In this document: piece by piece, positions 3,314 to 61,613 of the stretch | Layout: each line of letters opens with the position of its first letter | Numbering within the stretch: position 1 is the stretch's first letter | IMG/VR virus record: IMGVR_UViG_3300033802_000463 | Location: 64,001-128,000 of that record | Direction: 5' to 3' (one strand) | DNA: 64,000 nucleotides | Source: a virus | Notes under the pieces: model-generated | Database searches by the model: none | What the model was told of the DNA's origin: nothing | Seen by the model: only the letters and a program-made list of their open reading frames with translations | Position numbers and translations under genes: made by a program

Positions 3314-6300
3314 TTACATCAATGATGCCATGTTGTATCTTAAATAATTGTCGATCTCATCGCTGCGATCTTGCTGGTATTGGATCCCAATCCGTGTTGT
3401 GGATCCGGTATTGGGAGTCACCATGACATTGACATTTTTTAACCCTTGTCCTTCCAACACTTCTTGGATAGTGCGGCGCACTCTTTTGTAGCTGAATCCT
3501 TCGTTCTGATACAGATCATTTCCATAAGGCGTTAGATCTGGCGCCAGACGGGAGGCTTCAACATCATCCGGCCAAAAGTTAAAGTCGGAGAGATCCAGTT
3601 GCTGATTTTGAACCACTTTCAATTTGATGCTCTCCAAGTCAAATTCTGGCCGCCATCCTTCCCAATCTGCATCTGGAAGCACGTACTTTTGGAAGTATTC
3701 TTCAAGCGGCGGAACTTCTTCATCTCCATAGCCCCACAATGCTTTGTATATCCGCCTTTGATTTCTCGGAACAAGTTCCAGAATCCTCTCCCGGTCCCGC
3801 TCCGGCGCATTTACAAATTCGTCGAAAAACCACCGATCTTTCGTTGGAAAGGCGCGGGCAACCTTCATGCGATCGTCATACGGATCGATAGCATATAAGG
3901 TTTCTTCACTTTTCTCCTTATATTGTAACGCTTGACGTACAATATCGGGAAGTATTAATTCATCCCAACGGCTCTCTTGAATTTGAGCAAGCTCCTGATT
4001 GATTTCTCTTCGGCGTTCCTCCCAACCTTTGGGCTGAGTAATATACAGCCGCCGCTTTTCTTGCTCCAACTCATATCGGCGCTGCTTAACTTCAGCTTCT
4101 TTTTGTTCAATGTCTGCGAGTAGTGCTTCAACATCATAACCTTGTGCAGCGGCTTCTCGCTTAGCAGCCTCATACAAGCCAGTATATTTCATATACTTCA
4201 AGATGTCGAAGTATTCATTGATGTCATGCTCGATCCGTCTCCGTTTCGGGATCCATACTTCTCCATCATGAGTATATTCGTAGTGCCTTGCATATGCATG
4301 GCCGAGACCGCCAATCAGTGCTCCAACGATGGCTCCCGCGCTAGTGCGTCTTTTACCGCCTCCGCCCAGCACGGCCATAATCACCCCGCCGATTAAACCG
4401 CCGCGCATCATCGACTCCAGCAGATCGTGACGAAACGCAGCCTGGAAGCTTGGGATCAAGTAGTCACTTGTCAGGAAGTTGCGCCAAGTTGCCCAATCCT
4501 TTCCGTAAATCTGGTCTCGCTCGTATTCTTCAAGCGCTGTGCGCACTTGCAGAAATTTGGTATTTAGCGCCGATTCAAAATGCGCGATGGATTCCCATCT
4601 TGCTCCTTCAGCGATCTCATCAGTTGTAAAGCGCGCGTGAACCGCCGGCGCCGAGAAATCCGTCAGATTCTCTTTCATCAGGCCGCGGCGCAGGATTTCC
4701 TGGTTGATGTTTTTCAAGCCATCAAAGACAACGGCGCGCATCGTCTGATACGTATCATCTGATATTCGCCGGCTTTGATCCGCATCAACACCGATTGTGA
4801 TTTTATCCCCTACACTGATATAAGATTGCAAAACACCTTCCGCATTCGGCCGATAATCTACGCCGGCAAGCCGAATTGGCGTATCCCCAAATTCCTTCGT
4901 GAGAAACGTGTAATCATCCAGGAACTTGGTCACAGTTACTTGATATTTTTCAATATCTGCATATTTGAATCGGTAATCCACAAATTCATATTTTTGTTTT
5001 CGCCTCGCAACTTGCCGTTTAATCTCGGCGATTTGTTTACGAAGTTCCGGATCCGTAACGTTGGCCACCACATAATCGCGCCAAAATTTATATTCATCAC
5101 TCCATGGCGCCACATCAGCCAGAATTTTGAACTTGTCGAATGCACCGTAACGTCCGGTTTCATCCGGATGCAGCGTATTCAGTTTTTCATATGCTTCACC
5201 GGGCAAGCGATATTCTCCATGCTCAATTTTCGTGTAGGGATCGCCTACCTGGAAATTGATAAAGTAATTTGCTCCGGGGAGCCAATCTGGCATTGTGTTG
5301 CGAACCGGATTATAAGTATCCAGCTGCCCGTCATCGCGTCGAATGAAACGCCGGCCAATTTCGGAGACTGGTCCTCCGAGCGAACCAAGATTCATTCCCC
5401 AAAAACGGTTTGACAGGTTATTGGCTGCATCCGCTTTTTGGATGACCATTTCGCCTGCATAGGTGTTGTCTCCGACGACCTCCTCAAACATCCACTTGTA
5501 AACCCCAAGCGGTTCTGTCCAGTTTTGCGCAGTTTCTTGGATTCGCCAATTGAGACTTGTCGGATCATTCAATTCGCGCAGTTTTCGATTACGCACTTCG
5601 TTTTTGTACGCAAACTCCTCGGTTCTAAGTGCGCGCGGACTTGTATCCAATATGGGCTCGATTGGAGCAGCCATTGCAAACAGCTGATCAATGGAATAGT
5701 CTTCTTTTGCAATGCTGGACGGCACATAGATTGCTTGTCCGCTGGCGATTTCTTGCGCCACATAGGCACCTGTCGGATTTCCTTGGTCGTCTAATTCATT
5801 GGCGACAAAATATCGGATACCTTGCTCTTGACCGATTGTTTCCTCAGCTCCAGTCAAACCCGCAGCATAAGAGGATCCGTAATCGGTTGGTCCCGCATAA
5901 ACGATATGTTCAATTCGGCCGGCTGGAGATATGCGAGTCACAACCGGTGCCGTCGGTCGATCACCAAGTTCCTGATTTTCAGCATCAACCAAGACGGGAT
6001 CGCCCCAATACTCCGGATGCATATAGCGCGATGGCTTGATCAGCTGTCCGATCGTCGCATTCCCAATATCACCAAAAAACATCGTGTTCGGGTTAAACAG
6101 AGAACCGGTAATCAAGTAAGGGCGATCATAGTAGTGTTTTTGTTCCCAGTAATATTCATTTCCGTTCAGGACTCGTTTGAAGATCCCAAGCGGGTTTTCA
6201 AAGGTCGGCAAAATGTTCATTTCACCGTACCGTTCTTCGCCCGTCAGGTTTGTATTGGAATGTTCCCAATCACTCATCGCCAAACGCCATGCATTCGGTC

Positions 6301-9238: not shown

Positions 9239-9967
9239 TTATTCAAAATCCCCTTTCAGCTCCTCCTCTGCTCGGAACCAAGCCAGCTCTGGGAATATGT
9301 CATTCATCGTGTTCGGTTGATCCAAATTGACGGGTCTCCCTTCGGCTTGCGATAACATCCTCTCCACTTCTTCTTTGGAAAGCTGTTGATTTTTAGGGGA
9401 AACAGAATTAGTTTCTTGGACCGGCGGAGGGCTTACCGTATGTTGTTGCGGCTGCGCACCCGATCCAGGTTGATGATTTGCACTTGTCTCCTGTTCAATC
9501 GGAACCAGCTGCACGCCTCTCAAATTCACCAGTACCCATTCTGCCCGCGCAAGATAATACATCATTTTCTTGACGGACCAACTCTGAATTTCTTCCATTG
9601 AGATGTTCGGGAAAGCTTCATGAATAATCACGTCGGCTTGATAATCGAATATTGTCATATCTTGACGATATTGTTCCAGCAGCGCCTTCGCTTGGCCCTC
9701 TTGCAATCCGGATGCTTCAAGAATGAAATTGCTGATCGTTTCAGCAATTCCGGCAACATTATCAACAAAGTCATATGCTTGAGGATACAGTACTGCCTTT
9801 TGGCAAATAGCTTCCTGCATATCACTTATATTTTCTACGGAAAGAAGAATCTCTTTATATTCTTCTCGGCCAATGACCCGGAACACAAACTGTTGCTCCA
9901 GAATCGTTACTAAATAAACTTCCTCATACATGGATTTCCATTGTGCAATCTGTTCGTCACTCAGCAT
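9239..9967 (-). CDS. Putative tail assembly chaperone
   Basis: Sits between tube-like genes and the giant protein. N-terminus (IAQWKSMYEEVY...FVFRVIGREEY...VLYP) is paralogous to the neighbouring gene. Confidence 0.55.
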   Translation of the reverse strand: MLSDEQIAQWKSMYEEVYLVTILEQQFVFRVIGREEYKEILLSVENISDMQEAICQKAVLYPQAYDFVDNVAGIAETISNFILEASGLQEGQAKALLEQYRQDMTIFDYQADVIIHEAFPNISMEEIQSWSVKKMMYYLARAEWVLVNLRGVQLVPIEQETSANHQPGSGAQPQQHTVSPPPVQETNSVSPKNQQLSKEEVERMLSQAEGRPVNLDQPNTMNDIFPELAWFRAEEELKGDFE

Positions 9968-10028
9968 ATCGATCCGCCCTTATATAAAAATCAAGCAGGA
10001 CTCGACAGCCCTGCTTCGTTCTCATTGT

Positions 10029-43830: not shown

Positions 43831-44047
43831 GCGAATCACCTGCCTCGATAAAGCGCGGACCTCTGTATCCGTCTTTGTTGATTTCTTCAAACCACATCGA
43901 AAGCGGCCGGAAAAACAGCTCACCTTCTTCATTTGTGTAAGACACCATATCTTCCATCGTTTCTGAATGCTTTCCAATTCCAATGACCCTGTACACCTTG
44001 CCGTTCTTCCAATGGCGATACAGAGCCCCAATCCTTGGTGTTCTCAT
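43760..44047 (-). CDS. DUF1653-family protein
   Basis: YRHWKNGKVYRVIGIGKHSETMEDMVSY...FRPLSMW. Confidence 0.75.
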   Translation of the reverse strand: MRTPRIGALYRHWKNGKVYRVIGIGKHSETMEDMVSYTNEEGELFFRPLSMWFEEINKDGYRGPRFIEAGDSHGSVSPVFGGASRSSAVSRRGRV

Positions 44048-44255
44048 GGTCCTATTCTCCTTATAAAAAAAGGCCGTGGGCCTTCAATGTTTCTTTTCTT
44101 CTGAGTTTCCCAATGTTGTTTGAGCTTGCCTTTTATCGAAATAGCCGTCACAGATCTTCGTATCATGAATGACGGTTTTCTTTCTGCAGCAGAAACCAAT
44201 GAACTCGGGAGTATACCGGTCTTGACACAACTCCACACATAATAAGCATGACTCT

Positions 44256-44441
44256 TCATGTTCGGCTTTCATAATAAACACCTGCCGCTTGCAGAAGCTC
44301 GCGGGCAAGTGAAAATCGGCCAAACCAATAATCATCTGAGGTCCGTACTTCTGCGTTTTTATATTCGTTTTTAATTCTGTCAATCAGTTCCTGGAACTTT
44401 TGCGGATCCATGTGCATCCTCCTGTCAATTGTGATAAACAA
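44256..44441 (-). CDS. Small hypothetical protein
   Basis: ORF in operon; true start probably at MDPQKF after GGAGG. Confidence 0.45.
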   Translation of the reverse strand: MFITIDRRMHMDPQKFQELIDRIKNEYKNAEVRTSDDYWFGRFSLARELLQAAGVYYESRT

Positions 44442-44808
44442 TCCAATCGTCAGCCATCATATCGTCGCCATCTGCCGTGTATTCTGTCGGCTCATGTCCC
44501 GGAATCACGATCTGCTCCATGATCGTTCCCGTATTTTCATCCAGATACAGATAAGAATTGATTTTACTAAATCGTGTTACTTTCCATCCAGACTTGACCA
44601 ATGTCAGTGCGATGCTGAAATCAAAGTGCCTCAGATACTGAAGATCTTCATTATTCGGAACAATAATCAGCACTTTGCTGTCGCCAAATTGCTCTTGCCA
44701 TGCTTCGGCAAACCGAGCTGCATCTTCATAGGGCATATCGCCGGCTTTAAGAACATAAACCCCCTGAACATACTGAGCCCGATGAATATACTCTTGCAAG
44801 AGCTCCAT
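44425..44808 (-). CDS. DUF2829/Tad2-like domain protein
   Basis: FDFSIALTLVKSGWKVTR...DDMMADDWIV. Confidence 0.55.
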   Translation of the reverse strand: MELLQEYIHRAQYVQGVYVLKAGDMPYEDAARFAEAWQEQFGDSKVLIIVPNNEDLQYLRHFDFSIALTLVKSGWKVTRFSKINSYLYLDENTGTIMEQIVIPGHEPTEYTADGDDMMADDWIVYHN

Positions 44809-45002
44809 TCGGTCACCGACACCTCCAGGAGCACGCTAGTAGCCGTTTCATGATAACCTCTCCCCTGTCACAGCCAGTCTTCTTCCATCAATTGAGCTGT
44901 GGATTGTCCGCTGTCCGGCAGCTTTAATTCGATCAAAGCCTTGAAACGCATAACGAAACAGTGGATTTGCTGTTACCGCCTTGTTACTAAAAAGCACCGC
45001 AA

Positions 45003-45368
45003 TCACCTCCTTTCGGATTCGTTGCGGTTTCCTGCCTTTCTCTTTAACCGACTATTCTTTTTGTACTGGCTTCGCTTCACTTTACAGGATGAACAATAGA
45101 CCGTCGTGCGGTCATTTTCTTTCCCGCACATGACGCAGAGTCCTTTCTCCAATCTGTCTTGATATTGCTTTTTCTGATAGTGCTTTTGGCAAAGACCTGC
45201 GCCAAATGCTTTGCGGTTGCATTCCGGCTCACTGCATGTACCCGCTTCTTTTCGCATGACCGCATTCGCATCCCCATAACGAAGCTCACGCCTGTAGTGC
45301 TTCCAACACTTCCCCCTGGCGACAACTTTTTCTTCTGTGCATCCTTCGACACTGCAGCCCATCTCCAT
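45003..45368 (-). CDS. Cys/His-rich Zn-finger repeat protein
   Basis: CSVEGC...CWKHY, CSEPEC...CQKHY, CVMC...CSSC. Confidence 0.65.
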   Translation of the reverse strand: MEMGCSVEGCTEEKVVARGKCWKHYRRELRYGDANAVMRKEAGTCSEPECNRKAFGAGLCQKHYQKKQYQDRLEKGLCVMCGKENDRTTVYCSSCKVKRSQYKKNSRLKRKAGNRNESERR

Positions 45369-45374
45369 CCCCCT

Positions 45375-45548
45375 TTACTCAAATACATCATCTCTACATT
45401 GTTGTTCTTTGATACTCCTTACACGGATTCGAATCTTCTTGTCAGCTTGGATCTTCTTCTCAGCCTCCTCTCCTGAAGAAGCCTCAACAAGTGCGAAATA
45501 AATCGCTCTCAATGGCGGAATTTCGTATTCCACACCGTAGGTACGCAT
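45375..45548 (-). CDS. Small hypothetical protein (first gene of left arm)
   Basis: RBS GAGGGTGG; MRTYGVEYEIPP...; downstream of TTGTCA-18-TACAAT. Confidence 0.5.
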   Translation of the reverse strand: MRTYGVEYEIPPLRAIYFALVEASSGEEAEKKIQADKKIRIRVRSIKEQQCRDDVFE

Positions 45549-45572
45549 CACTTTTACCACCCTCTTTATCTT

Positions 45573-45602
45573 ATTGTAATGCATTACATTACACTTTGAC
45601 AA
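45573..45602 (-). promoter_or_regulatory. Leftward sigmaA-like promoter overlapped by TGTAATGCATTACA
   Basis: TTGTCA-18-TACAAT on the minus strand; palindrome at 45575-45588. Confidence 0.55.
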
Positions 45603-45720
45603 GACAGAAAAAACCCTATATAGCCCCAAATTTTTATAAAAAAATTTTGGGCCAAGCCTCTTCATTTGACACTCTGGAAAAAACCCCATATAGGGCCATT
45701 TTTATAAAAAAAAATTGCGC
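45595..45720 (+). repeat. Imperfect 70-bp-period tandem duplication at the strand switch
   Basis: Two copies of TTTGACA-N17-TATAG-GC-rich-TTTTTATAAAAAAA(A)TT. Confidence 0.7.
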
Positions 45721-45809
45721 GTGGTAGTAGGTTTCCTTGAGTTGGGTATGGGCGGCGTTCGGAGCCCCACCCACCTCTAATACCAAATACGATGAAAGGA
45801 TGATTTCGC

Positions 45810-45992
45810 ATGGCACAACAAAAACAAAGACTGAAACTGATCATGGAGTATCTGAAGGAGAACGGGAAAGCTGTTCGATTTGGTGACCTGATGAGACAAG
45901 GATTCTATTCCTTTGTCATCAAGATGGTGGCTGAAGAAGTGGGAGCAAAGCTTGATTATGACGATCAAGGGTACAGCATCATCGCCTTCTGA
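45810..45992 (+). CDS. Small hypothetical protein (first gene of right arm)
   Basis: RBS AAAGGA; 60 aa. Confidence 0.6.
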   Translation: MAQQKQRLKLIMEYLKENGKAVRFGDLMRQGFYSFVIKMVAEEVGAKLDYDDQGYSIIAF

Positions 45993-46008
45993 TGATGCTC
46001 CCTCTCTT

Positions 46009-46063
46009 GCCTGCACCGTGCTGGCCTCCCCGTGGCGCAGGTGGATACCCAACCAACAGCACG
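46009..46063 (+). ncRNA. Minimal HDV-like (theta-type architecture) self-cleaving ribozyme
   Basis: P1 GCCUGC/GCAGGU with G1-U wobble; J1/2 AC; P2 CGUGCUG/CAGCACG; P3 GCC/GGC; L3 UCCCCGU; GG for P1.1; J4/2 CCAA. Confidence 0.85.
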
Positions 46064-46164
46064 ATTGGCACGCTGATGACAGTATGCGTGTTCAATTAAA
46101 ACCTGTCACACCAATCAGGGTTGGCAGTGATCCCGCAAAACTGACCATAAGAAAGGAGTTTAAC

Positions 46165-46698
46165 ATGAAAAACGCAGCAGCAAACATCAAATTCGGTTAT
46201 GAGCTGAAGAACGCCCTGGGCAAGATTGTGGTTATGCCAAGGGCACACAAGGCAATGGTAATCGGCAAGTCTGTAAGCAAGGGCAAGATGGTTTTCGATG
46301 CAGTTGTGACCTATGGTGGCAAGGCTCTGAACGCCGTATGGAAAGGCATCAAGTGGACCGGACGCATGCTCTGGAGGAATCGTGCAGCGATTACCATTGG
46401 TGCAGTGTCGGCTATTGCAGCCGGCGCCATGACGAGTAGCATGACAGGTGCAGTCATGGCAGCTTCAGCAATTGCTCCCGCAGCGATGATGGCATGGGAT
46501 TCGATTATTGCATCGATCCGGGAACGCAAGATGCAATTCCGCTTGAATCTGAGGAGGATGTTGAATGCATCCATTGCGGGATCCATGTTCCCTTGCTTGT
46601 TTATCTATGGCTTCTTTGGCCTGGCGCTTGCTTTGGATTATGCCTTCTATGCTGCACTGGATGGGCTGTTCTATAGCCTGGTGCTGTTCTACCTGTAA
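46165..46698 (+). CDS. Membrane protein
   Basis: RBS AAAGGAG; several hydrophobic helices. Confidence 0.7.
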   Translation: MKNAAANIKFGYELKNALGKIVVMPRAHKAMVIGKSVSKGKMVFDAVVTYGGKALNAVWKGIKWTGRMLWRNRAAITIGAVSAIAAGAMTSSMTGAVMAASAIAPAAMMAWDSIIASIRERKMQFRLNLRRMLNASIAGSMFPCLFIYGFFGLALALDYAFYAALDGLFYSLVLFYL

Positions 46699-46975
46699 TT
46701 AGGTAGACAGTACAGGTGATGATGCATATGCCTGACGTGATGACGACGGATGAAGGCATGGTGTAGGCGTCACCAGGCGCGGCGCAGGCATGCGCGCCCT
46801 ATAAATACATGGCTGTTGGATTGATGCCTCCATTACCGGCATCCGCAGTGATGACAAGCGCATTGTTATCCGTATTGGCCACTCGTCATGATGGCCCGCA
46901 GTAGCGCCGGCGATATAGGTGCTCTTTGTCGTTTAGTGGGAATCACCCGCCGGCATCGTACCCGTCATTTGCAGA

Positions 46976-47003
46976 GGTTTCATCCTCTTGGCGGGACTCA
47001 TGC
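46976..47003. repeat. Left arm of 28-nt long-range inverted repeat
   Basis: GGTTTCATCCTCTTGGCGGGACTCATGC; 27/28 reverse complement of 51320-51347. Confidence 0.9.
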
Positions 47004-47108
47004 TTGATCACTTGCAGTATATAAGCTGCTTTTTCTAATTTTCTATTTTTCTGCTTTTATATCAATTTTCAAGATCAACAAATTCACATAAAAGGAGAAT
47101 GATTCACT

Positions 47109-50100
47109 ATGCAACAAAATCAAATCAACAAGTTCATGTCTGCAGCTGATGTTCTTGGTGCTTTGGCTTCCTTCCCGGGCATCCGTGAAGGCGGCAAGAA
47201 CTTTGATCTCGTAACCAGTGCTATGACGGAGGGGAACAATATCTTGAACATTCTGCGTGACCCGGTTGGTATTGCAGGGATTGCGCCTCAGCAAGCGCAT
47301 CATTTCGCTCGCTTTGTTGAAACCTACAAGGATCAGCTTCCAGAACGCTTGATGCCGAAGAAGCGGGATTCCATCCAAATCCTGATTGCAGACATCAACT
47401 TCATGAAGCGAGATGAAGATGGATGGATGGTGTCCACATTTAAGTACAATGATCCAACGAAAGACAACGGATTTGACTTCAAGAGTGAGAATCAAATGGC
47501 TGATGTATTTGCATCGGAGCCGGTTATTCTGCAAATTCGCCGCAAGTTTAACAAAGGCGAGATGGTTGTAGAGAAGCGTGCTCGTCTGATGCATGACATT
47601 GTAACGGTCAACATGAACTGGGTCCTGGAGGAAGGCCAATCCGAGCCGACCGCCGAGCAGCTGGCCATCCAAGCGGAGCTGATGGAAAAAGGCTTCAAGA
47701 TCATGATGAATGGTGAAGCTAAGTATTGCAAAATGATTCAGCAAACCAACAGCCAGGCACGCCAAGTTATGGCCAATTTCTTGGTTTGCGACAATGAGTT
47801 TGATGCTGTTCCTGAGTTCTTCATGAAGCTGGGACACAACCTTGTTGCTTATGGAAAGAAGAATGCAGATGGAACCATTACGATTGATTGCACCAAATAT
47901 ATGAGCCGTATTGGTCTGTCTGGAACCAGCTCCATCCTCTGCCGCGCCATTCAAATCGGAGATCAGATTCAAGAGAATGGAGATGGCAGCTATTCCATCC
48001 TGGGTGGCAATATGACGATGCGTGTTCAGCCGGATGTGCATGTCATGGTTCGCATCGGCAAATATAAAGTCATCAATGCACAAACCAAAGAGTTTGAAGT
48101 CTTCGATGCTTCCGAACATCCGGTAAAGATGGTGGCTGGCGATGGCCTGATCTTTGTAAACAAGCGTATGTATAAGGCACTCGTTGCTGAACATGGCGTT
48201 AATGTCGATGCTTGGCAAGTTCGGATTACGCCGTTTGGCAAAGGGCTGGCTGTCTATGTCCCTGGCCTGGAGAAAACATTCGAGGAAGATATTGTGGCAT
48301 TTAGCTCCGCCATCAAAGGTGACTTCCGCGATGTTGTAGGCGTACACAAGATCCAATTCCGTGTCGCACTTTTCAATAAGCCGGCCAAGAAGATTAAGAA
48401 GTATACGGAGTATCCGTATCAATTTGTCCATGGAACCAGCCTGACTGCTGAAGATATGATGAATCTGGTAAAACCTCATATGGAGAAAGTCAAGGCAATG
48501 CTTGAAGATCCGGAGCTTCTGATGGATTATCTTGGCATGGATCGTCTGGAAGGTGCATCCGACGAAGAACTGGACAAGGCACTGGTGACAACGTTGATGA
48601 CATTCCTGCATGAGGCGCCGTTCACTTACAAGGATGTCCAAATGAAGAAGTATGCAATGCAACACATTATGGACATGATCAAGAACTGGGTTGTCGGTTC
48701 GATCCCTGTTGAAGCCAATTACAAGTTCATGGTTCATGATCCGCTGGCCATCCTGGAGACGCTGCGCTTGGATCGCTTGCTCCCAGGCAAGCTGCGTGAT
48801 GAAGATGGCGATCTTGTTATTCCTCCGAATGTGGGCTTGCCTGCAGGTACGGTTGTCGTTCGTGATATGAATGACGAGTATCTTGAAGGTGAAATTGGCA
48901 TGCAGCGCAATCCGTTGATTGCCAAGAGTGAATCTGCGGTTGCTGTGGCTATGAAAGATCCGAAATATGTTCGTGTCGGCCATTTCCGTAATCTTTGCGT
49001 CATGAGCGTTCATGACTTCAATACCGCAAAGCAAGGTGGAGCCGACAATGACGGTGACAAAACACTGGTTATTAAGGATCCTGTGATCATCAATGCCATC
49101 AAGCGCAATGCTCACCTTCCTGCCCTGCTGGATATTCATGTGGTTGAATATGTGGATGGTCAACCGGTATTCGATAGCGGCTGCCCGAAATCCTGGAGCG
49201 CGAAGCCAGAGAATGTGTATTCCATTCCCGCTCCCATGATTGTTAAGCAAGACGGCTTCAAAGTGACATTCGCTAAGGATCAGTATAATGAAACGCTCAT
49301 TAATGAGCTTCATAAACTAACCAAGGATTACATCACTCGCACACTGAAGCCGAACCAAATCGGCTTGTTGACCAATTATGCCACGAAGCTTGCAGATGCC
49401 GTGCGTTCACTTGGTTATCAATACAAGCTTGGCGTAGACAAGGATGGTCTGCCGCTTTCTCAGAAAGATAAGCAAGACATTCTGAATAAGATCAAACAAT
49501 TCGAAGAATGGATTGATCTTCTCCGCCTGTGCCAAGGATGGGAGATTGACGCCGCGAAGCATGGCGGTGCATTCTGGGAGGCGCTTGAGAATGAGCTGAG
49601 CTTCATCAAGAATCCGCCGGAGGAAGTTGGATACGTTAGCGAGAAGACCAGCAGGACTGTATGGTATACGCCGGACTGGATGGCTGAGCGCAATAACAAA
49701 GAATTTGGTGTATACACCGGTTCGGTTCTTTCCCGCTTGTTTGTCGATATGGTGAAAGAACGCGCTGACATCTCGAAGTTTGTTGATGAAATGGACAAGC
49801 GTTCTGAAGGAGCCAACATTTACGGTGAGCTGAATGCAGCGATTTCCATGTCTCCGGAACGTTATGAAATGATCAAGGCACATGTGGTAGACATCGATCG
49901 TGAGTATCGCATGGGTATGCAGAACCTTATCAAGAAAGAATCCGAAGCAATAGATCGCGCGGTCGCTCTGGCTGAAGGCAACAAGCACAAGCTGGAGTAT
50001 CTCATGGAAATGGTTCATACCAAGATGAAAGAGGAACGAGCTTTGCTCATTGAGTCCTGCGCCGCGCAGCTGGAGAAGCTGGAAGATGTATTTGCGCCGG

Positions 50101-50540
50101 AAGAGATCGGATTCGTGGCTTACAAGCTCACTTATATTGACTCCAAGTCTGAATCCACTTCTTTCCCGTGGACCGTAGCTAAGCGTCAGTTCCTGGCAAC
50201 TTGCCAAGTTGCGGCCGGCAAAAATCCATCCCGTCTGCCGAAGATCGCAACACGCAAGGCCGACGCGGAGATTAACCTGATGCTGGTGAATCCGAAGCAT
50301 GCAGAGTTGATCGATCGGGCAACGCGCAATGGTTATATGGACGTGAAGTTGGTGCAAGATCAATTAACCGGCAATCTGGTGTATGCCGTTGGCGTCGAGA
50401 ATGTCCTGCTTGGCTATGTATACAACAAGTCGGCCATTTGGTTCTCTGGCGCAGCGCAAGCTCGTGTATATTTCTCTGAACATCGCTACATGTCTCAGAA
50501 GTCGGCTGCAATCAGAGCAACCACTATCAATCTTGCTTAA
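47109..50540 (+). CDS. Single-chain two-barrel RNA polymerase, YonO/eukaryotic-RdRP family
   Basis: GDGLIFV...AWQVRITPFGKG, QRNPLI, catalytic GGADNDGDK, IGLLTN, EIDAAKHG; RBS AAAGGAG. Confidence 0.85.
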   Translation: MQQNQINKFMSAADVLGALASFPGIREGGKNFDLVTSAMTEGNNILNILRDPVGIAGIAPQQAHHFARFVETYKDQLPERLMPKKRDSIQILIADINFMKRDEDGWMVSTFKYNDPTKDNGFDFKSENQMADVFASEPVILQIRRKFNKGEMVVEKRARLMHDIVTVNMNWVLEEGQSEPTAEQLAIQAELMEKGFKIMMNGEAKYCKMIQQTNSQARQVMANFLVCDNEFDAVPEFFMKLGHNLVAYGKKNADGTITIDCTKYMSRIGLSGTSSILCRAIQIGDQIQENGDGSYSILGGNMTMRVQPDVHVMVRIGKYKVINAQTKEFEVFDASEHPVKMVAGDGLIFVNKRMYKALVAEHGVNVDAWQVRITPFGKGLAVYVPGLEKTFEEDIVAFSSAIKGDFRDVVGVHKIQFRVALFNKPAKKIKKYTEYPYQFVHGTSLTAEDMMNLVKPHMEKVKAMLEDPELLMDYLGMDRLEGASDEELDKALVTTLMTFLHEAPFTYKDVQMKKYAMQHIMDMIKNWVVGSIPVEANYKFMVHDPLAILETLRLDRLLPGKLRDEDGDLVIPPNVGLPAGTVVVRDMNDEYLEGEIGMQRNPLIAKSESAVAVAMKDPKYVRVGHFRNLCVMSVHDFNTAKQGGADNDGDKTLVIKDPVIINAIKRNAHLPALLDIHVVEYVDGQPVFDSGCPKSWSAKPENVYSIPAPMIVKQDGFKVTFAKDQYNETLINELHKLTKDYITRTLKPNQIGLLTNYATKLADAVRSLGYQYKLGVDKDGLPLSQKDKQDILNKIKQFEEWIDLLRLCQGWEIDAAKHGGAFWEALENELSFIKNPPEEVGYVSEKTSRTVWYTPDWMAERNNKEFGVYTGSVLSRLFVDMVKERADISKFVDEMDKRSEGANIYGELNAAISMSPERYEMIKAHVVDIDREYRMGMQNLIKKESEAIDRAVALAEGNKHKLEYLMEMVHTKMKEERALLIESCAAQLEKLEDVFAPEEIGFVAYKLTYIDSKSESTSFPWTVAKRQFLATCQVAAGKNPSRLPKIATRKADAEINLMLVNPKHAELIDRATRNGYMDVKLVQDQLTGNLVYAVGVENVLLGYVYNKSAIWFSGAAQARVYFSEHRYMSQKSAAIRATTINLA

Positions 50541-50545
50541 TGCAT

Positions 50546-50574
50546 GAAGGGGAGAGTGACAAGCTCTCCCCTTC
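50546..50574 (+). terminator. Hairpin after the RNAP gene (weak U-tract)
   Basis: GAAGGGGAGAG/CTCTCCCCTTC. Confidence 0.45.
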
Positions 50575-50607
50575 TCTATATTCATTATTCATTTAGGAGG
50601 AATCAAT

Positions 50608-51252
50608 ATGGCAACTTTGTACAATCGTGTGGCAGCATGGATCAATCCCAAGCATATCAAGGTCCGCCGGGATGGCAATACGGTATACATCAATATTGCA
50701 GGAAAGGAACACACCATAACATTCTACAATCTTCAAGAGCCGGTGGAGTTGGAAGTCTCCGCCCATGTCGTAGAGTTTGTGAATGTATCCTATTTCCGCC
50801 GCACAGGAAAGCGTATTGAGAGATCCTATTATTCGACGGTGATTGCATTTGAAAATAAACTTAACGAGGATCACCGCATTTCCCCTTACAAGTTGTGCGA
50901 GTTTCGCACTGATATCCAAGACGCATTGAACGCATTAAAGTCGCTTGCCGATCTTCCGATGCCGACTGATAAACAACTTCAGCTTCTTGTTTATCAAGCA
51001 TTGATTCAAGCTTGCAAAGAGAGCAAGTACAAGACAGCTACTTATACTCAATGGGAAAGCACATGGTTTAATCTGCTTGATCAATTCGATATGGTTTACT
51101 TGCCGCGAGACATTTTCAAAACATTAGCTGCAAAGTATCTTGAAGCCGGTTATGCAGATGCTATTGAACGAAATGGTCAGTATGGATCATTTAATGTCTT
51201 CAAGCCATCCCAAAAAGGATTGACTCGTTGGAATCAGCATACAGGTCAATGA
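50608..51252 (+). CDS. Hypothetical protein enclosed with RNAP by the inverted repeat
   Basis: RBS AGGAGG; 214 aa. Confidence 0.75.
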   Translation: MATLYNRVAAWINPKHIKVRRDGNTVYINIAGKEHTITFYNLQEPVELEVSAHVVEFVNVSYFRRTGKRIERSYYSTVIAFENKLNEDHRISPYKLCEFRTDIQDALNALKSLADLPMPTDKQLQLLVYQALIQACKESKYKTATYTQWESTWFNLLDQFDMVYLPRDIFKTLAAKYLEAGYADAIERNGQYGSFNVFKPSQKGLTRWNQHTGQ

Positions 51253-51319
51253 GGCCCTTCGGGCACGGGTGCGGCGGTCATAACTGCAGCTGCCGCACCA
51301 CTGCAACATCGTGACACTT

Positions 51320-51347
51320 GCATGAGTCCCGCCAAGAGCATGAAACC
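51320..51347. repeat. Right arm of 28-nt long-range inverted repeat
   Basis: GCATGAGTCCCGCCAAGAGCATGAAACC. Confidence 0.9.
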
Positions 51348-51813
51348 CAGCCACTGCATATTTGATCCTCTTTATCTCTCCATGACTTCTCCTCTATTTC
51401 TCTCCCCTCTTTCCTCATGATGCTCATCATGCTCATATATCCAATTATGCGAATCATCTCTCCTCTGCCCCATCAACATCAAACCTGAGGTATTTCAGCA
51501 TTATTCTTGCTCCCCTAACCATCTGCTCCCGGAACGGGGTTTTGTAAGCTCCTCCTCCCTCCTCACACTGTTCTTTCACATCATAATAGCTTCTCTTCGC
51601 TGGAAATTTTCTCCCTAAGTTATACCTTCGGCATGATGCTATTCTTATTTATGTTTCATGCATGTGTAATGCGTTACGAATCTCTCCCGTGCTTTATTTG
51701 ATGCTTATAAGTATCAATGTTGCTTGGTTTCGTTCGTGCTATTAGGATGACTAGAGGTGCGCCTGACGGCGCGCTTCACTGCAGATAAATTTTTCTTTCA
51801 AGGAGGAACTACG

Positions 51814-52254
51814 ATGAAAGAAGTTACGATTTACACTGACGGCGCCTGCTCCGGCAATCCTGGTCCTGGAGGCTGGGGAGCCGTTCTAACATATAAAGAC
51901 AAGCAAAAGACGGCTTTTGGCTACGAGCCGCATACGACAAACAATCGTATGGAGCTTGTAGCCGTTATTGAGTCGTTGAAGCTTTTGAACCAACCCTGCC
52001 ACGTCCAAGTGTATAGCGATTCAGCCTACTTGGTGAATTGCTTCAACAACAATTGGATCGAGGGTTGGCAAAAGAACGGCTGGAGAACCAGCAAAAATCA
52101 ACCGGTGGAAAACCGGGAATTGTGGGAGGCGTTGCTTGAACTAATGAAGATTCATCAAGTTGAATACTTCAAAGTCAAGGGGCACTCCCACGTTACATTA
52201 AACGAAATGGCTGATCGGTTAGCGCGTGAAGCCATTAAACGACATCGTTCTTGA
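51814..52254 (+). CDS. rnhA: Ribonuclease HI (copy 1)
   Basis: YTDGACSGNPGPGGWG, NNRMEL, SDSAY, KGH...NEMAD. Confidence 0.92.
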   Translation: MKEVTIYTDGACSGNPGPGGWGAVLTYKDKQKTAFGYEPHTTNNRMELVAVIESLKLLNQPCHVQVYSDSAYLVNCFNNNWIEGWQKNGWRTSKNQPVENRELWEALLELMKIHQVEYFKVKGHSHVTLNEMADRLAREAIKRHRS

Positions 52255-52293
52255 TTTTACTGGCGGCATGTTTTTGCCGCCAGTGTGTGTTTA

Positions 52294-52350
52294 TCTCTGT
52301 CTGCAGAGTAACAGCTGCACTGATGAGTCTTATTGGAGACGAAATAGAGA
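52294..52350 (+). ncRNA. Type III hammerhead ribozyme
   Basis: UCUCUGUC^UGCAG-loop-CUGCA CUGAUGA GUCUU-AUUG-GAGAC GAAA UAGAGA; GUC cleavage predicted after 52301. Confidence 0.9.
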
Positions 52351-52372
52351 ATCTATCATGGAGGCAATGCGA

Positions 52373-52835
52373 ATGGCTGATCCGTCTATTTTTTTCTTAT
52401 CAGAGATTGATTCTGCGAGTTTATATACTCGTGAAAATATTAAACGTGTAAAGGAGATGTTTGTTGAAGGGCTAAAAGCAGATGTAGAATCAAACCATAT
52501 TGATCGTCAATTGGCGAATAAATGGTTTCGTATGATGATTCAGAATAAGATGGCTTTCGCCATTGCCCTTGGGTCCGACTTTAAGGGTTTCCGTGTTGCT
52601 AAGAGCAAGTCAGATTTTCATCCTTATACGGAGAATCTGGCAATATGGCCCAGACAGCTTTTTTTATGATCGTTTGTCTAATTACGATCTTATTTACCAA
52701 GAAGTATATTCATGGAGAGGTGATAAGTTTAAGAGTGACACATTATACTTTATGTCTCGTAAGTTGAGGTTAGATGTTGGTTTGATAGGATCCCCTCGGA
52801 CGATGGTCCGGCCGCCTATTCAATTTGAAGACTGA
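52373..52835 (+). pseudogene. Hypothetical gene apparently frameshifted at a T7 run (52659-52665)
   Basis: RBS GGAGG. Removing one T joins ...WPRQLF to YDRLSNYDL..., which ends at the terminator. Confidence 0.4.
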
Positions 52836-52870
52836 GGAGATATGATTCTTTTATCTCCTCTTTTTTATTT
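52834..52870 (+). terminator. Intrinsic terminator
   Basis: GAGGAGATA/TATCTCCTC followed by TTTTTT. Confidence 0.75.
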
Positions 52871-53025
52871 TCCTTCTCCTGTCCCGCTTCCACTTCACCT
52901 CCATTGAATGATGTTACTTTTTTATGTTCGACGTAAAAGATCATGCCAGGAGCGGCTGACGCCGCATTTCCATCACAGATGTAGGCGAAACTTCTACATC
53001 AATCTTAGTCGTGGAGGTATTGCTT

Positions 53026-53202
53026 ATGGTGGAGCAAGAGATCATGGAAATCATTCCAAGAGGAAACATGAAGCAATCGCAATATGATCTGCTTGTGAAA
53101 CTGATAGGGATCTACTATCGTGCAAATGGATTAATGCTTCACATTGTTCCTGCTCCTGATACACGTAACAAGAAATTGCGATTGATACGTGGGGATAAAT
53201 GA
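53026..53202 (+). CDS. Small hypothetical protein
   Basis: RBS GGAGGT before ATG 53026. Confidence 0.55.
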   Translation: MVEQEIMEIIPRGNMKQSQYDLLVKLIGIYYRANGLMLHIVPAPDTRNKKLRLIRGDK

Positions 53203-53262
53203 TGCATGAATGCCTGACGGCATAATTCATTATCCAGCGTTGATTCACAAGGAGATGATATT

Positions 53263-53493
53263 GTGGAGTTGATCGATCCATGTCGTCGTCTTCATCTGCT
53301 TCGGCCAGGCAACCTGGTTGTAATTCAAGGCACTGTCATTGGCTGTTTAGGTGCGGAAGGAAAAATTGGTGTGATTACCGATGAGCCTAATCAGTCTGGA
53401 TTATTGTCTCATAAGCCCGGTGTGAATGTAAAGCTTGATGCAGGCTTCGTATGGCTTGTCAACAAAGATGCTGTAAAACCTTTTGGCAAGTGA
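53263..53493 (+). CDS. Small SH3-like hypothetical protein
   Basis: RBS AAGGAG; GNLVVI...GKIGVI...VNVKL. Confidence 0.5.
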   Translation: MELIDPCRRLHLLRPGNLVVIQGTVIGCLGAEGKIGVITDEPNQSGLLSHKPGVNVKLDAGFVWLVNKDAVKPFGK

Positions 53494-53517
53494 ATATTGA
53501 GGAAGGATGTGCATGGA

Positions 53518-53952
53518 ATGAAATATGAGATCTATCAGATCAAGGATGAGTATCGCAGGCAATATGGTTTTGCAAACTTGGATATATTGCCGATGAGATA
53601 TAGAGAGGATACGGATCATCCTGTATTGATTTCAAATGGTGTTGTTCCTGTTCTAAATATCGATGCTTATAACAAGGTGTATGAGGGTGATACTGCATCT
53701 ATTGGTGGTATTGATCGTTTTGTTATTAACGATCCGGCCAACCCGATGCATAAGCAGCAAATGAGGTTGCTTGAGCATATGTTTGAAGTGTTTAATCTTT
53801 ATCATCCTTCGGATTATCGCGCCCCCTCTATGAGTGTAGGCGATCTTGTTGTATTGTATCCGTATGATGATAGTAACAGGGAAGCATTCTTTTGCGACAG
53901 CTTTTCCTGGAAACCAATTGAGTTAATGTCCCGCTCCGGGTCATGGAGTTGA
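53518..53952 (+). CDS. YodL-like domain protein
   Basis: YEIYQI...YNKVYEG...FEVFNLYHPSDY...SMSVGDLVVL...FFCDSF. Confidence 0.75.
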   Translation: MKYEIYQIKDEYRRQYGFANLDILPMRYREDTDHPVLISNGVVPVLNIDAYNKVYEGDTASIGGIDRFVINDPANPMHKQQMRLLEHMFEVFNLYHPSDYRAPSMSVGDLVVLYPYDDSNREAFFCDSFSWKPIELMSRSGSWS

Positions 53953-53957
53953 TCATT

Positions 53958-54137
53958 ATGTACAAAGCAACAATTTATTATCGATCGGGTCATACGGCGA
54001 CTATTCGTTGTGACTCTATTTCTCTTGCACGTATGTATCTGTTTGGCCGTGGTGTGGATCATATTGTAATGGCCATGCCCGGCCGCCCCTCTCTCCCTCC
54101 TATTATCCTTCGTCATTCATCCGATTCATGCGGCTGA
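53958..54137 (+). CDS. Small hypothetical protein
   Basis: RBS GGAG; its stop codon is the loop of a hairpin motif copy. Confidence 0.4.
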   Translation: MYKATIYYRSGHTATIRCDSISLARMYLFGRGVDHIVMAMPGRPSLPPIILRHSSDSCG

Positions 54138-54384
54138 TGCCGCTTTTCATTTTGATGTGCTATAATACTGCTTGCATGAGGAGGATACAGAATGTTTAAA
54201 AAGAAACCAACGCTTAATAACGCATGACTGGCAGCCGGTTGATTCCCAAGGCTATGGGATGGAATGCTCCAATTGCGGCAAATACATCTCTGCATTTGAG
54301 CCGGACGCTTGGAAGGCCGGCCAGGAGTCGCTTTGCATCCCGACGGCACGACTACAGAAGAGAAAATACGGAGGTGATATTCAG

Positions 54385-56160: not shown

Positions 56161-56587
56161 CGCTTGCTTCTTGCCCTCCCCCGGGATCAGACCATTGCAT
56201 CCTATTGGGGCCACCCTGGCCCCCCTTTAAGAGGGCATACTTCCCCCAAAGGTATGAAGGTGCATGTTTTGGAACAATCAGCGATTCTTGATTGACTGTC
56301 ATGCTGCTTTTGCCGTATAGTGAGAAATGCTTCATGGCATCTATCAAGATTCTTTTTAGCGCTGTTCATTTTCCATTTTTGGAATCTTGTTCCATGTTTA
56401 TTCGTGCCATTTCTCACTTGCTTGCTGCATGATTAAAAATGCACCTATAAATTATACATAGCGGAAAACCTGGGGTATTTTAACCCCAGTTATTTCCATC
56501 TGGTATATTTCACAAAATTGTCACATTTTGTTCGCATTTTTTATCTATTATGGCTGACGCCATGTTTCCTTTTGGGGTGAGTTTTCC

Positions 56588-57660: not shown

Positions 57661-58097
57661 AAGAAGTAACGATCTATACAGATGGCGCATGCAGCGGCAA
57701 TCCTGGCCCAGGGGGCTGGGGTGCCGTTTTAATTTATGGAGAAATAACGGAGCAACTCAGTGGTTACGAACCGCATGCAACCAACAATCGCATGGAGCTG
57801 ATCGCAGTTATTGAATCACTAAAAGCGCTCAAAGAGCCTTGCCGCGTAAAAATCATCAGCGATTCGGCTTATGTCGTCAATTGCTTCAAACACAAATGGT
57901 ACGAATCCTGGATTGCAAAAGGCTGGAAAAACTCTCAAGGCAAGAAGGTCGAAAACCAGGAGCTTTGGGAGGAACTCCTGCATCTGATGACAATTCATCA
58001 GGTATTCTACCAAAAAACAAGAGGTCATGCTGATGATCAGTACAATAATCTAGCTGATCAGCTGGCTCGAAATGCAATTAAACAGCATGGTGCCTGA
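57657..58097 (+). CDS. rnhA: Ribonuclease HI (copy 2)
   Basis: All catalytic motifs present; GTG start after GGAGG. Confidence 0.92.
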   Translation: MKEVTIYTDGACSGNPGPGGWGAVLIYGEITEQLSGYEPHATNNRMELIAVIESLKALKEPCRVKIISDSAYVVNCFKHKWYESWIAKGWKNSQGKKVENQELWEELLHLMTIHQVFYQKTRGHADDQYNNLADQLARNAIKQHGA

Positions 58098-58172
58098 CGG
58101 CACAATTCGCTTCAGATTCCATCAGTTTTCATCAGATCACATCATATTCTATTCAAATTGGAGGTTTTTACC

Positions 58173-61397: not shown

Positions 61398-61560
61398 TTT
61401 TACCGGTCTTTCCTATGAAGAAGCGATTCGTCAAGTTGAGCGACTCGATAACCTTCCAAAAGAATGTCCAGGATTTCATGTTGAAATCGGCGGATGGAGA
61501 AAACGCTGGAATATGGATGAAGCCCTTCGGCAGGCTTATCCGGAGCAATACAAAAATTGA
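61345..61560 (+). CDS. Small Zn-binding hypothetical protein
   Basis: CNKC...ECPGFH. Confidence 0.5.
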   Translation: MKQVKTTCNKCKTEITLDFTGLSYEEAIRQVERLDNLPKECPGFHVEIGGWRKRWNMDEALRQAYPEQYKN

Positions 61561-61613
61561 GCCTGACGGCTCGCTTCATTGTAGAAAAATTAATCCGAGA
61601 GGAGATCATTTCT

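Follow-up and report, generated by a model that had tools for sequence, protein, structure and literature searches.

A long-range inverted repeat around the gene for a YonO-like RNA polymerase in a large virus genome and its possible pairing as an RNA stem

The stretch of DNA considered here, referred to as the window, consists of 64,000 nucleotides and corresponds to bases 64001–128000 of the 136,063-base virus record IMGVR_UViG_3300033802_000463, which is estimated to be 69% complete. It carries a gene for a single-chain RNA polymerase related to YonO, and this gene is enclosed, together with one gene for a protein of 214 amino acids (aa), by two non-coding arms of 28 nucleotides (nt), which are reverse complements of each other (27 of 28 positions paired; spacing 4316 nt). 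An earlier note on this DNA had claimed such a repeat, with non-coding arms about 4.3 kb apart and with exactly these contents; coordinates, pairing and the context of open reading frames (ORFs) all agree with it, and both genes were found as described.

The left arm reads GGTTTCATCCTCTTGGCGGGACTCATGC (positions of the features are collected in Table 1). The single mismatch, at position 9 of the core, places a C opposite a C in the plus-strand RNA. Shuffling the window 100 times with dinucleotides preserved gave 0.00 arm matches on average, and two matches in none of the 100 cases. When up to three mismatches were allowed, the whole record of 136,063 bases contained two copies of the arm only, and a profile built from four arms, those of the window and of the related locus L026, gave no further match better than E = 6.5. 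Both arms lie outside credible genes, the right arm being overlapped by short antisense ORFs only. No second helix was found beside the bracket between positions 45000 and 64000 of the window, and no other nearby gene is bracketed.

The polymerase matches the Pfam family RdRP (RNA-dependent RNA polymerase; PF05183, E 4.2e-9, 36.1 bits versus a cut-off of 23.8) and phrog_8308. Residues G643, G644, A645, D646, D648, G649 and D650 (GGA-D-x-DGD, with the metal-binding motif DxDGD) are invariant across 14 homologues. The closest homologue is 76% identical, its source being named by NCBI as Paenibacillus sp. UNC496MF. The enclosed gene is thus assigned to the YonO-like single-chain two-barrel RNA polymerases.

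Recurrence and divergence of the arms

Related loci were gathered through an alignment of polymerase homologues and from plasmid records. Pairing between the flanks was judged by a strict score, for which 600 nt upstream were compared with 2500 nt downstream of the polymerase gene. This score replaced a lax one, whose background was equal to the signal; RNAduplex, when applied to long flanks, produced meaningless sprawling structures. Locus L036 was left out of the scoring, since its contig ends inside the polymerase gene.

Four of the 13 loci scored far above the others, namely the window (63), L026 (59), L031 (63) and L038 (69). A value of 37 was obtained for L032 and values of 25–32 for the other eight loci; the 156 comparisons across loci had a mean of 28.8 and a standard deviation of 4.4, and the high values among them came from related pairs (41 and 65 for the window with L026, 45 and 40 for L031 with L038). 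The helix of L038 was found again, with a score of 69, in L149, which is the plasmid record NZ_CP048288.1 of a cultured strain, Paenibacillus rhizovicinus. L026 belongs to a provirus record, for whose polymerase NCBI gives Paenibacillus sp. UNC496MF as the source. Two further plasmid records, L150 from Paenibacillus urinalis (31) and L151 from Bacillus thuringiensis (40), showed no bracket, and no strict score above 40 occurred among 46 additional loci, which were mostly distant YonO-like genes and included L082 and L084; the polymerase of L082 is identical to that of L028. Altogether, complementary arms are present in four of about 16 distinct loci of the close family and show compensatory changes there, which is the outcome of the search for flanking repeats beside homologous polymerases that the earlier note had proposed as a check.

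In the polymerase tree, the window and L026 form one fully supported pair and L031 and L038 another, and the two pairs are not sisters. Nearer to L031/L038 are L029/L030, L028/L082 and L032/L037, yet these carry no bracket. The stem sequences differ between the two clades (GGTTTCATCCTCTTGGCGGGACTCATGC in the window family, GTTCATGGCGAGCTGTAACGAGGCGGTGACT in L031).

Attempts to enlarge the set gave little. A single-protein scan of viral contigs returned no close relatives, a phage collection searched by DNA and by protein yielded no match, and scans specific for the stem family of either clade led only to loci already in the set. The DNA pattern of the window-type arm was met in viral contigs at the two arms of L026 and in two polymerase-free contigs, which were taken as chance. 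Three candidates were not counted. The borderline pairing of L032 (37) was rejected, as it is lost in the sister L037. A perfect 18-nt complement in L151 (the score of 40 given above) and a perfect 17-nt complement in L082 (5307–5323 / 10009–10025; score 40, the highest among the 46 loci) were left aside for want of a sister locus to compare. In L082 the two halves of the complement stand 579 nt before and 622 nt behind the polymerase gene, respectively.

Between the window and L026, the 28-nt core differs at two positions in the left arm and at four in the right arm (6 in 56 arm bases). Both changes of the left arm (46981 and 46996) coincide with changes of the right arm, and these two double changes keep the pairs: 46996/51327 goes from AU to GC and 46981/51342 from CG to UA. 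The other changes of the right arm turn one GC pair into GU and break one pair; both genomes retain the C–C mismatch of core position 9. By our own arithmetic, the chance that both left-arm changes would land on two of the four changed right-arm positions with pairing kept is about 0.002. Between L031 and L038 there are four double changes, no single ones and five broken pairs, which are mostly peripheral; in our own reading, the two one-sided core changes affect positions which neither genome pairs. The total of double compensatory changes is thus six. Changed positions amounted to 21 of 102 among paired versus 19 of 43 among unpaired positions for window/L026, and to 14 of 104 versus 7 of 23 for L031/L038. 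In strain contigs of the DNA runs X2 and X4 the left arm is invariant, and the flanking positions 47018 and 47028 vary.

Downstream of the polymerase gene, the right arm is all that the window and L026 share, as an island of similarity in unrelated flanks. The brackets of L026, L031 and L038 hold the polymerase gene only (spacing 3626, 3827 and 3780 nt, respectively). The 214-aa gene is extra cargo of the window and is absent from L026; one DNA contig of run X4, from a near-identical strain, joins 50572 to 51311 and so skips 738 nt (50573–51310), including this gene, the joint being seen in a single contig of depth 3.2 with 61 letters on its shorter side. The distance from the left arm to the estimated start of the polymerase is 105 nt in the window and 189–221 nt in L031 and L038, and that from the polymerase stop codon to the right arm is 8–86 nt in the relatives and 780 nt in the window. 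The bracket appears to retain the polymerase gene while tolerating other cargo.

Surroundings of the bracket

From position 1 to about 45,700 the genes of the window are on the minus strand, including those for the tail sheath and the portal protein, and the GC skew turns near 46,000. A string of plus-strand genes begins with a 60-aa ORF at 45810, which is followed by a 177-aa ORF; the latter shows that the left arm sits inside this string. Its ribosome-binding site and start are kept in L026, and proteins weakly similar to its product (22–27% identity) are encoded at the same place in L026, L031 and L038. In each of the four loci, the gene ahead of the leader runs in the same direction and has a conserved ribosome-binding site. 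The non-coding stretch between the 177-aa gene and the polymerase gene measures 410 nt; in the alignment of 46690–47120 the leader is 80% identical to that of L026, compared with 73% for the region of the polymerase gene, and its insertions and deletions are not multiples of three. A consensus scan found no terminator-like site on the plus strand between the upstream gene and the left arm.

Table 1. Features at and around the polymerase locus (window coordinates unless stated otherwise)
Feature	Position	Strand	Remarks
Upstream co-directional gene	46165..46698	+	177 aa, Ala-rich; no function assigned
Conserved non-coding leader	46699..46975	+	from the end of the 177-aa gene to the left arm
Left (5') arm	46976..47003	+	105 nt before the ATG of ORF 47109–50540
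Polymerase gene	47109..50540	+	1143 aa; YonO/RdRP-like single-chain RNA polymerase; constant cargo of the bracket
12-bp hairpin	50546..50574	+	directly 3' of the polymerase stop codon
214-aa orphan gene	50608..51252	+	optional passenger within the bracket
Tetraloop hairpin GCCC-UUCG-GGC	51254..51264	+	in the trailer; read from the sequence
G+C-rich hairpin GGGTGCGGCGG ... CTGCCGCACC	51267..51299	+	just 5' of the right arm; partly paired in the co-fold
Right (3') arm	51320..51347	+	68 nt past the stop of ORF 50608–51252
Small hairpin CUGAG-GUAU-UUCAG	51485..51498	+	window copy of the motif CUGGG-GUAA-CUCAG
Terminator-like hairpin and T run	51527..51539	+	about 180 nt past the right arm; consensus scan only
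TGAC-loop hairpins, window	51754–51777, 52952–52965, 53210–53223, 54130–54143, 56549–56564, 58090–58103, 61558–61573	+	
TGAC-loop hairpins beyond the window (genome coordinates)	129378–129405, 132943–132960	+	

On the 3' side, the hairpin behind the polymerase stop codon has a similar counterpart in L026 (GGGGAG...CTCCCC); since this is without a T run, the hairpin is probably no terminator. The right arm of L031 and L038 begins 8–10 nt past the stop codon, which leaves no room for a terminator, so that the polymerase transcripts of these two loci must run into the arm. A C(UUCG)G hairpin adjoins the right arm in all four loci, standing on its 5' side in the window and L026 and on its 3' side in L031 and L038. 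The hairpin CCCTTCGGG is also found near the 3' end of the polymerase gene in L026, L031 and L038, and was seen in L028, L034 and L032 as well. In L032, which is without a gene-wide bracket, an inverted repeat of 37 nt (9524–9560 / 9822–9858, 92% complementary) surrounds 261 nt immediately 3' of the polymerase gene, and each of its arms contains a hairpin of the CCCTTCGGG type.

A further hairpin motif, CUGGG-GUAA-CUCAG (AACYTGRGGTAWYTCRGCA), occurs 140–270 nt past the right arm in exactly the four loci which bear the bracket (in L026 at 9607–9620, in L031 at 9774–9787 and in L038 at 9830–9843; for the window see Table 1). It has a GNRA loop in three of the four, one-sided changes in its stem retain the pairs, and it is kept although the polymerases of these loci are only about 35% identical.

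The 214-aa protein had no match in Pfam, PHROG or NCBIfam, and in a search of 5.8 billion clusters it matched itself only. A low-confidence Atlas model (pLDDT 0.58) gave only weak structural matches of a winged-helix-like kind for its C-terminus, at TM 0.36–0.41. Past the right arm follow about 400 nt of non-coding DNA and then an RNase H gene. Just beyond this gene and a hairpin at 52258–52285 lies a candidate for a hammerhead ribozyme of type III on the plus strand (52294–52350; Rfam RF00008, 38 bits, which is below the gathering threshold of 48.5, E 2e-5); this candidate, further along the same strand, suggests that the phage processes its transcripts. No family of the HDV type was among the Rfam matches with E up to 1 for positions 44000–54000 of the window. 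In 12 relatives, the flanks of the polymerase gene gave no Rfam match, to a ribozyme or to any other family. Upstream of the polymerase region, beside tRNA arrays, matches below the gathering threshold were noted to a partial GOLLD RNA in L030 (1–317, minus strand, 127 bits) and to a ROOL RNA in L033 (320–830, minus strand, 86.5 bits).

Full-length relatives of the polymerase were seen on plasmid records of about 200–260 kb from Paenibacillus and Bacillus species (H1–H8), and the window encodes a partition-type protein (phrog_691). Because of these two observations, the elements may be phage-plasmids.

Possible functions of the paired arms

The explanation preferred here, with a probability of about 0.5, is a long-range RNA stem which loops out the polymerase mRNA and is probably processed by the RNase III of the host. 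Both arms would be transcribed on one plus-strand message, which would extend from the small genes upstream, across the polymerase gene, into the trailer. On emerging, the 3' arm would bind the 5' arm through 27 pairs (about -51 kcal/mol), and the entire polymerase cistron would be looped out, together with the 214-aa gene where this optional passenger is present. A cut by RNase III is proposed because a duplex of such length is a substrate of this enzyme; the polymerase mRNA would then most likely be released from its polycistronic precursor, and its ends would stay clamped in the remaining half-helix, where they would be shielded from 5' and 3' exonucleases like those of 16S and 23S rRNA in their stalks. 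Stabilisation is a guess, and cleavage could equally start decay. An RNA stalk had already been preferred to recombination sites in the earlier note. It is the best-supported reading, by the recurrence of the arms, the compensatory changes, the G-U pairs of the sense strand, the context and the lack of a recombinase, and from these sequence features we infer a common transcript for both arms, formation of the helix, the cut and stabilisation rather than decay. The reason given at the time, namely the bulged flanks, did not hold, as these are not conserved between the window and L026.

The core helix comprises 27 pairs in the window and 29–47 in L026, L031 and L038. Core G-U pairs number 0, 1, 3 and 3 in the plus-strand RNA of the window, L026, L031 and L038, respectively, versus 0, 0, 1 and 0 in the minus-strand RNA (7 versus 1). 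The plus-strand duplex is the more stable one in L026 (-49.9 versus -48.6), L031 (-69.9 versus -59.8) and L038 (-74.5 versus -61.9).

As a separate observation, local folds of L031 (5704–5745) and L038 (about 5767–5853) pair the Shine-Dalgarno sequence of the polymerase gene with CCUCUCC at the inner end of the 5' arm, and a matching GGAGAGG is present in the 3' arm. Formation of the long-range helix might in these two loci release the ribosome-binding site as well, as in a possible three-way switch; the local folds are no better than those of shuffled sequences (z -0.06 and +1.45).

Several points weigh against the proposed stem. About 12 of the 16 related loci are without a bracket. The short flanking blocks TGCAG/CTGCA, TCAC/GTGA and TTGCAGT/ACTGCAA, which had been claimed to extend the pairing, do pair in a co-fold of the window sequence; this outer, bulged pairing is not kept in L026, where 10–13 outer pairs are broken, and the conserved feature is the 28-nt core only. 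The window core contains no G-U pair, its minus-strand duplex is slightly more stable than that of the plus strand (-53.3 versus -50.7), and with flanks of 35 nt the minus strand is favoured in both the window and L026. The strand signal is thus weak: about five independent G-U events stand against one, with a one-sided binomial value of about 0.11 by our own arithmetic. A promoter could not be placed, as consensus scans for promoters and terminators in the four loci gave numbers near those of shuffled sequences; a promoter in the conserved TATATAAGC / T-rich stretch, which lies between the left arm and the start codon of the polymerase, could yield a main mRNA without the 5' arm. A boxA-like motif was not enriched (144 matches with up to three mismatches versus 121 expected), the nearest match to the left arm being at 46920–46932 with three mismatches; the motif used was short and degenerate, and may not be that of the host. 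Finally, the compensatory changes fit RNA pairing and the co-evolution of two DNA sites with one protein alike.

On that last account the arms would be two copies, in opposite orientation, of one DNA site, both following the specificity of the same protein, for instance as an operator pair which forms a DNA loop and silences the polymerase gene in the carrier state, as a polar terminator or roadblock which insulates the cassette, or as start sites of the polymerase. We hold this to be a serious rival, though less probable than the RNA stem. The position of the cassette at the strand switch between the leftward structural genes and the rightward genes would suit it, as would the weak signal for an RNA strand. 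The two stem families share the blocks GTTTCAT / GTTCAT and GGCGGGACT / GGCGGTGACT, a hint of sequence conservation beyond pairing, and positions which differ between the arms also vary between genomes, which would be expected too if they were simply unconstrained. On the other hand, the arm itself is not a dyad, unlike the usual operators of dimeric regulators; the complementarity of L031 and L038 extends over 44–53 nt, with bulges that shift while the pairs stay, and is long for a protein site; the distances from the arms to the gene ends vary widely among the loci; and no candidate for a binding protein is shared, the 214-aa gene being present in the window only. For start sites there is a different, repeated candidate signal. 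Nine G+C-rich hairpins with a TGAC loop (once TGAT), all on the plus strand, lie to the right of the polymerase cassette between 51754 and 68960; seven of the nine are followed by TTC within a few bases, and none is found among the structural genes or at or directly before the arms. L026 has three such hairpins, and L031, L038 and five other loci have none. They are candidate start signals of the phage polymerase, in the manner of N4-like hairpin promoters, and the TTTCAT of the arms resembles the TTCAT tail behind them. The convergent polymerase promoters suggested in the earlier note found no support, since the arms lack a TGAC-loop hairpin in front and exist in exactly two copies, in the record of the window as well as in a 100%-complete relative of 229 kb; a promoter would be expected more often.

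Crossover sites for inversion or cassette movement, or terminal inverted repeats of a mobile element, would be similar in dimensions, as arms of 28–37 nt and a segment of 3.6–4.3 kb resemble the G segment of phage Mu. The gene content inside the bracket differs between strains, and the similarity of window and L026 is lost right after the polymerase gene except for the arm. An explanation of this kind is nevertheless unlikely. No match to Resolvase (PF00239) or Phage_integrase (PF00589) was obtained in the four records, one of them 100% complete, and control genomes did match; an enzyme of the host would be possible. The arms have the same orientation relative to the flanks in all four loci, and the contigs of four DNA runs which bridge the arms gave the reference orientation only and no strand-changing joint, a weak point because of their low depth. 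The left arm marks no break of synteny in any pair, and in L031/L038 neither arm does; no target-site duplication is visible at the arms, and the cargo is a polymerase, not a transposase. The invertible segment considered in the earlier note is accordingly not favoured. A relic without present function, left by some old duplication or recombination, would agree with the absence of the bracket from most relatives, and is even more improbable: between window and L026 the arms diverge less (6/56 bases) than the gene (about 27%) or the leader (20%), they are invariant in strain contigs whose flanks vary, and two clades with unlike arm sequences have retained the bracket, with changes that match between the arms. 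Scarcely to be expected, lastly, is a panhandle RNA recognised by the RdRP-related polymerase itself, which might amplify its own message by RNA-templated copying, or regulate its own amount by binding to the helix. The idea arises because the bracket is tied to this gene in two clades, because the enzyme family includes RNA-dependent polymerases and because no other gene nearby is bracketed.

Comparison with known systems

The long-range RNA stem proposed above would have its closest model in bacterial rRNA operons, where the sequences flanking 16S and 23S rRNA pair as leader-trailer stalks and are cut by RNase III. Common to both are two unique complements of about 30 nt, kilobases apart, which fully enclose an RNA and are kept by compensatory change; different are the protein-coding cargo, the optional 214-aa gene and the fact that no boxA-type signal stands out near the 5' arm, and cleavage is here proposed only. 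In the early transcript of phage T7, RNase III sites flank gene 1, which encodes the RNA polymerase, and the remaining stem stabilises the 3' end. The mRNA of a phage polymerase would similarly be cut here from a polycistronic transcript by host RNase III; the T7 sites are a local hairpin on each side, whereas here one helix would be made from both sides. The invertible segments of Mu, P1 and e14 (G, C and P, with Gin, Cin and Pin) have inverted repeats of about 30 bp around 3–4 kb. Unlike these, the present locus has no invertase gene, no alternative orientation was seen, and what is enclosed is an entire gene, ribosome-binding site included.

Among processed mRNAs, the available text on RNase III of Bacillus subtilis (PMC11780869) reports, for 45 mRNAs, 73 sites, of which many belong to long-range intramolecular duplexes with 2-nt overhangs. 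A Bacillales host and an mRNA duplex over long distance would be shared with this case; the duplexes analysed in that text are pairs within 1 kb on cellular mRNAs, and the span of 3.6–4.3 kb around a whole phage cistron here is a difference which counts against our proposal. Pairing between the 5' and 3' untranslated regions (UTRs) is described, in the parts of these reports at hand, for the icaR mRNA of Staphylococcus aureus (PMC3868564) and the hbs mRNA of B. subtilis (PMC5737220), and controls the action of ribonuclease or translation. The inner end of the 5' arm in L031 and L038 can pair with its own Shine-Dalgarno sequence, which is reminiscent of icaR; those pairings are short and concern small genes, unlike the helix of 27–47 pairs, which in the window and L026 is outside the translation start. 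Literature on a YonO promoter was met only in the 2017 paper on this enzyme (PMC5467207), which leaves that promoter open in the corresponding parts. A literature search on long-range UTR pairing with RNase III found no helix enclosing a phage polymerase gene, and was too narrow to exclude one in print.

If the panhandle idea were true, DNA phages of this kind would gain their first example of a step templated or gated by RNA. If the long-range stem is real, it would provide a handle on the dosing of YonO-like polymerases and would extend long-range processing of the RNase III type beyond structural RNAs and mRNA duplexes of less than 1 kb, to an entire cistron of 3.4 kb. The differences from the known systems are the span of 3.6–4.3 kb, the complete cistron inside, the lack of boxA and the nature of the cargo, a phage polymerase. 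With such a stem, a large Paenibacillus phage or phage-plasmid would treat the message of its own polymerase as cells treat their ribosomal RNA.

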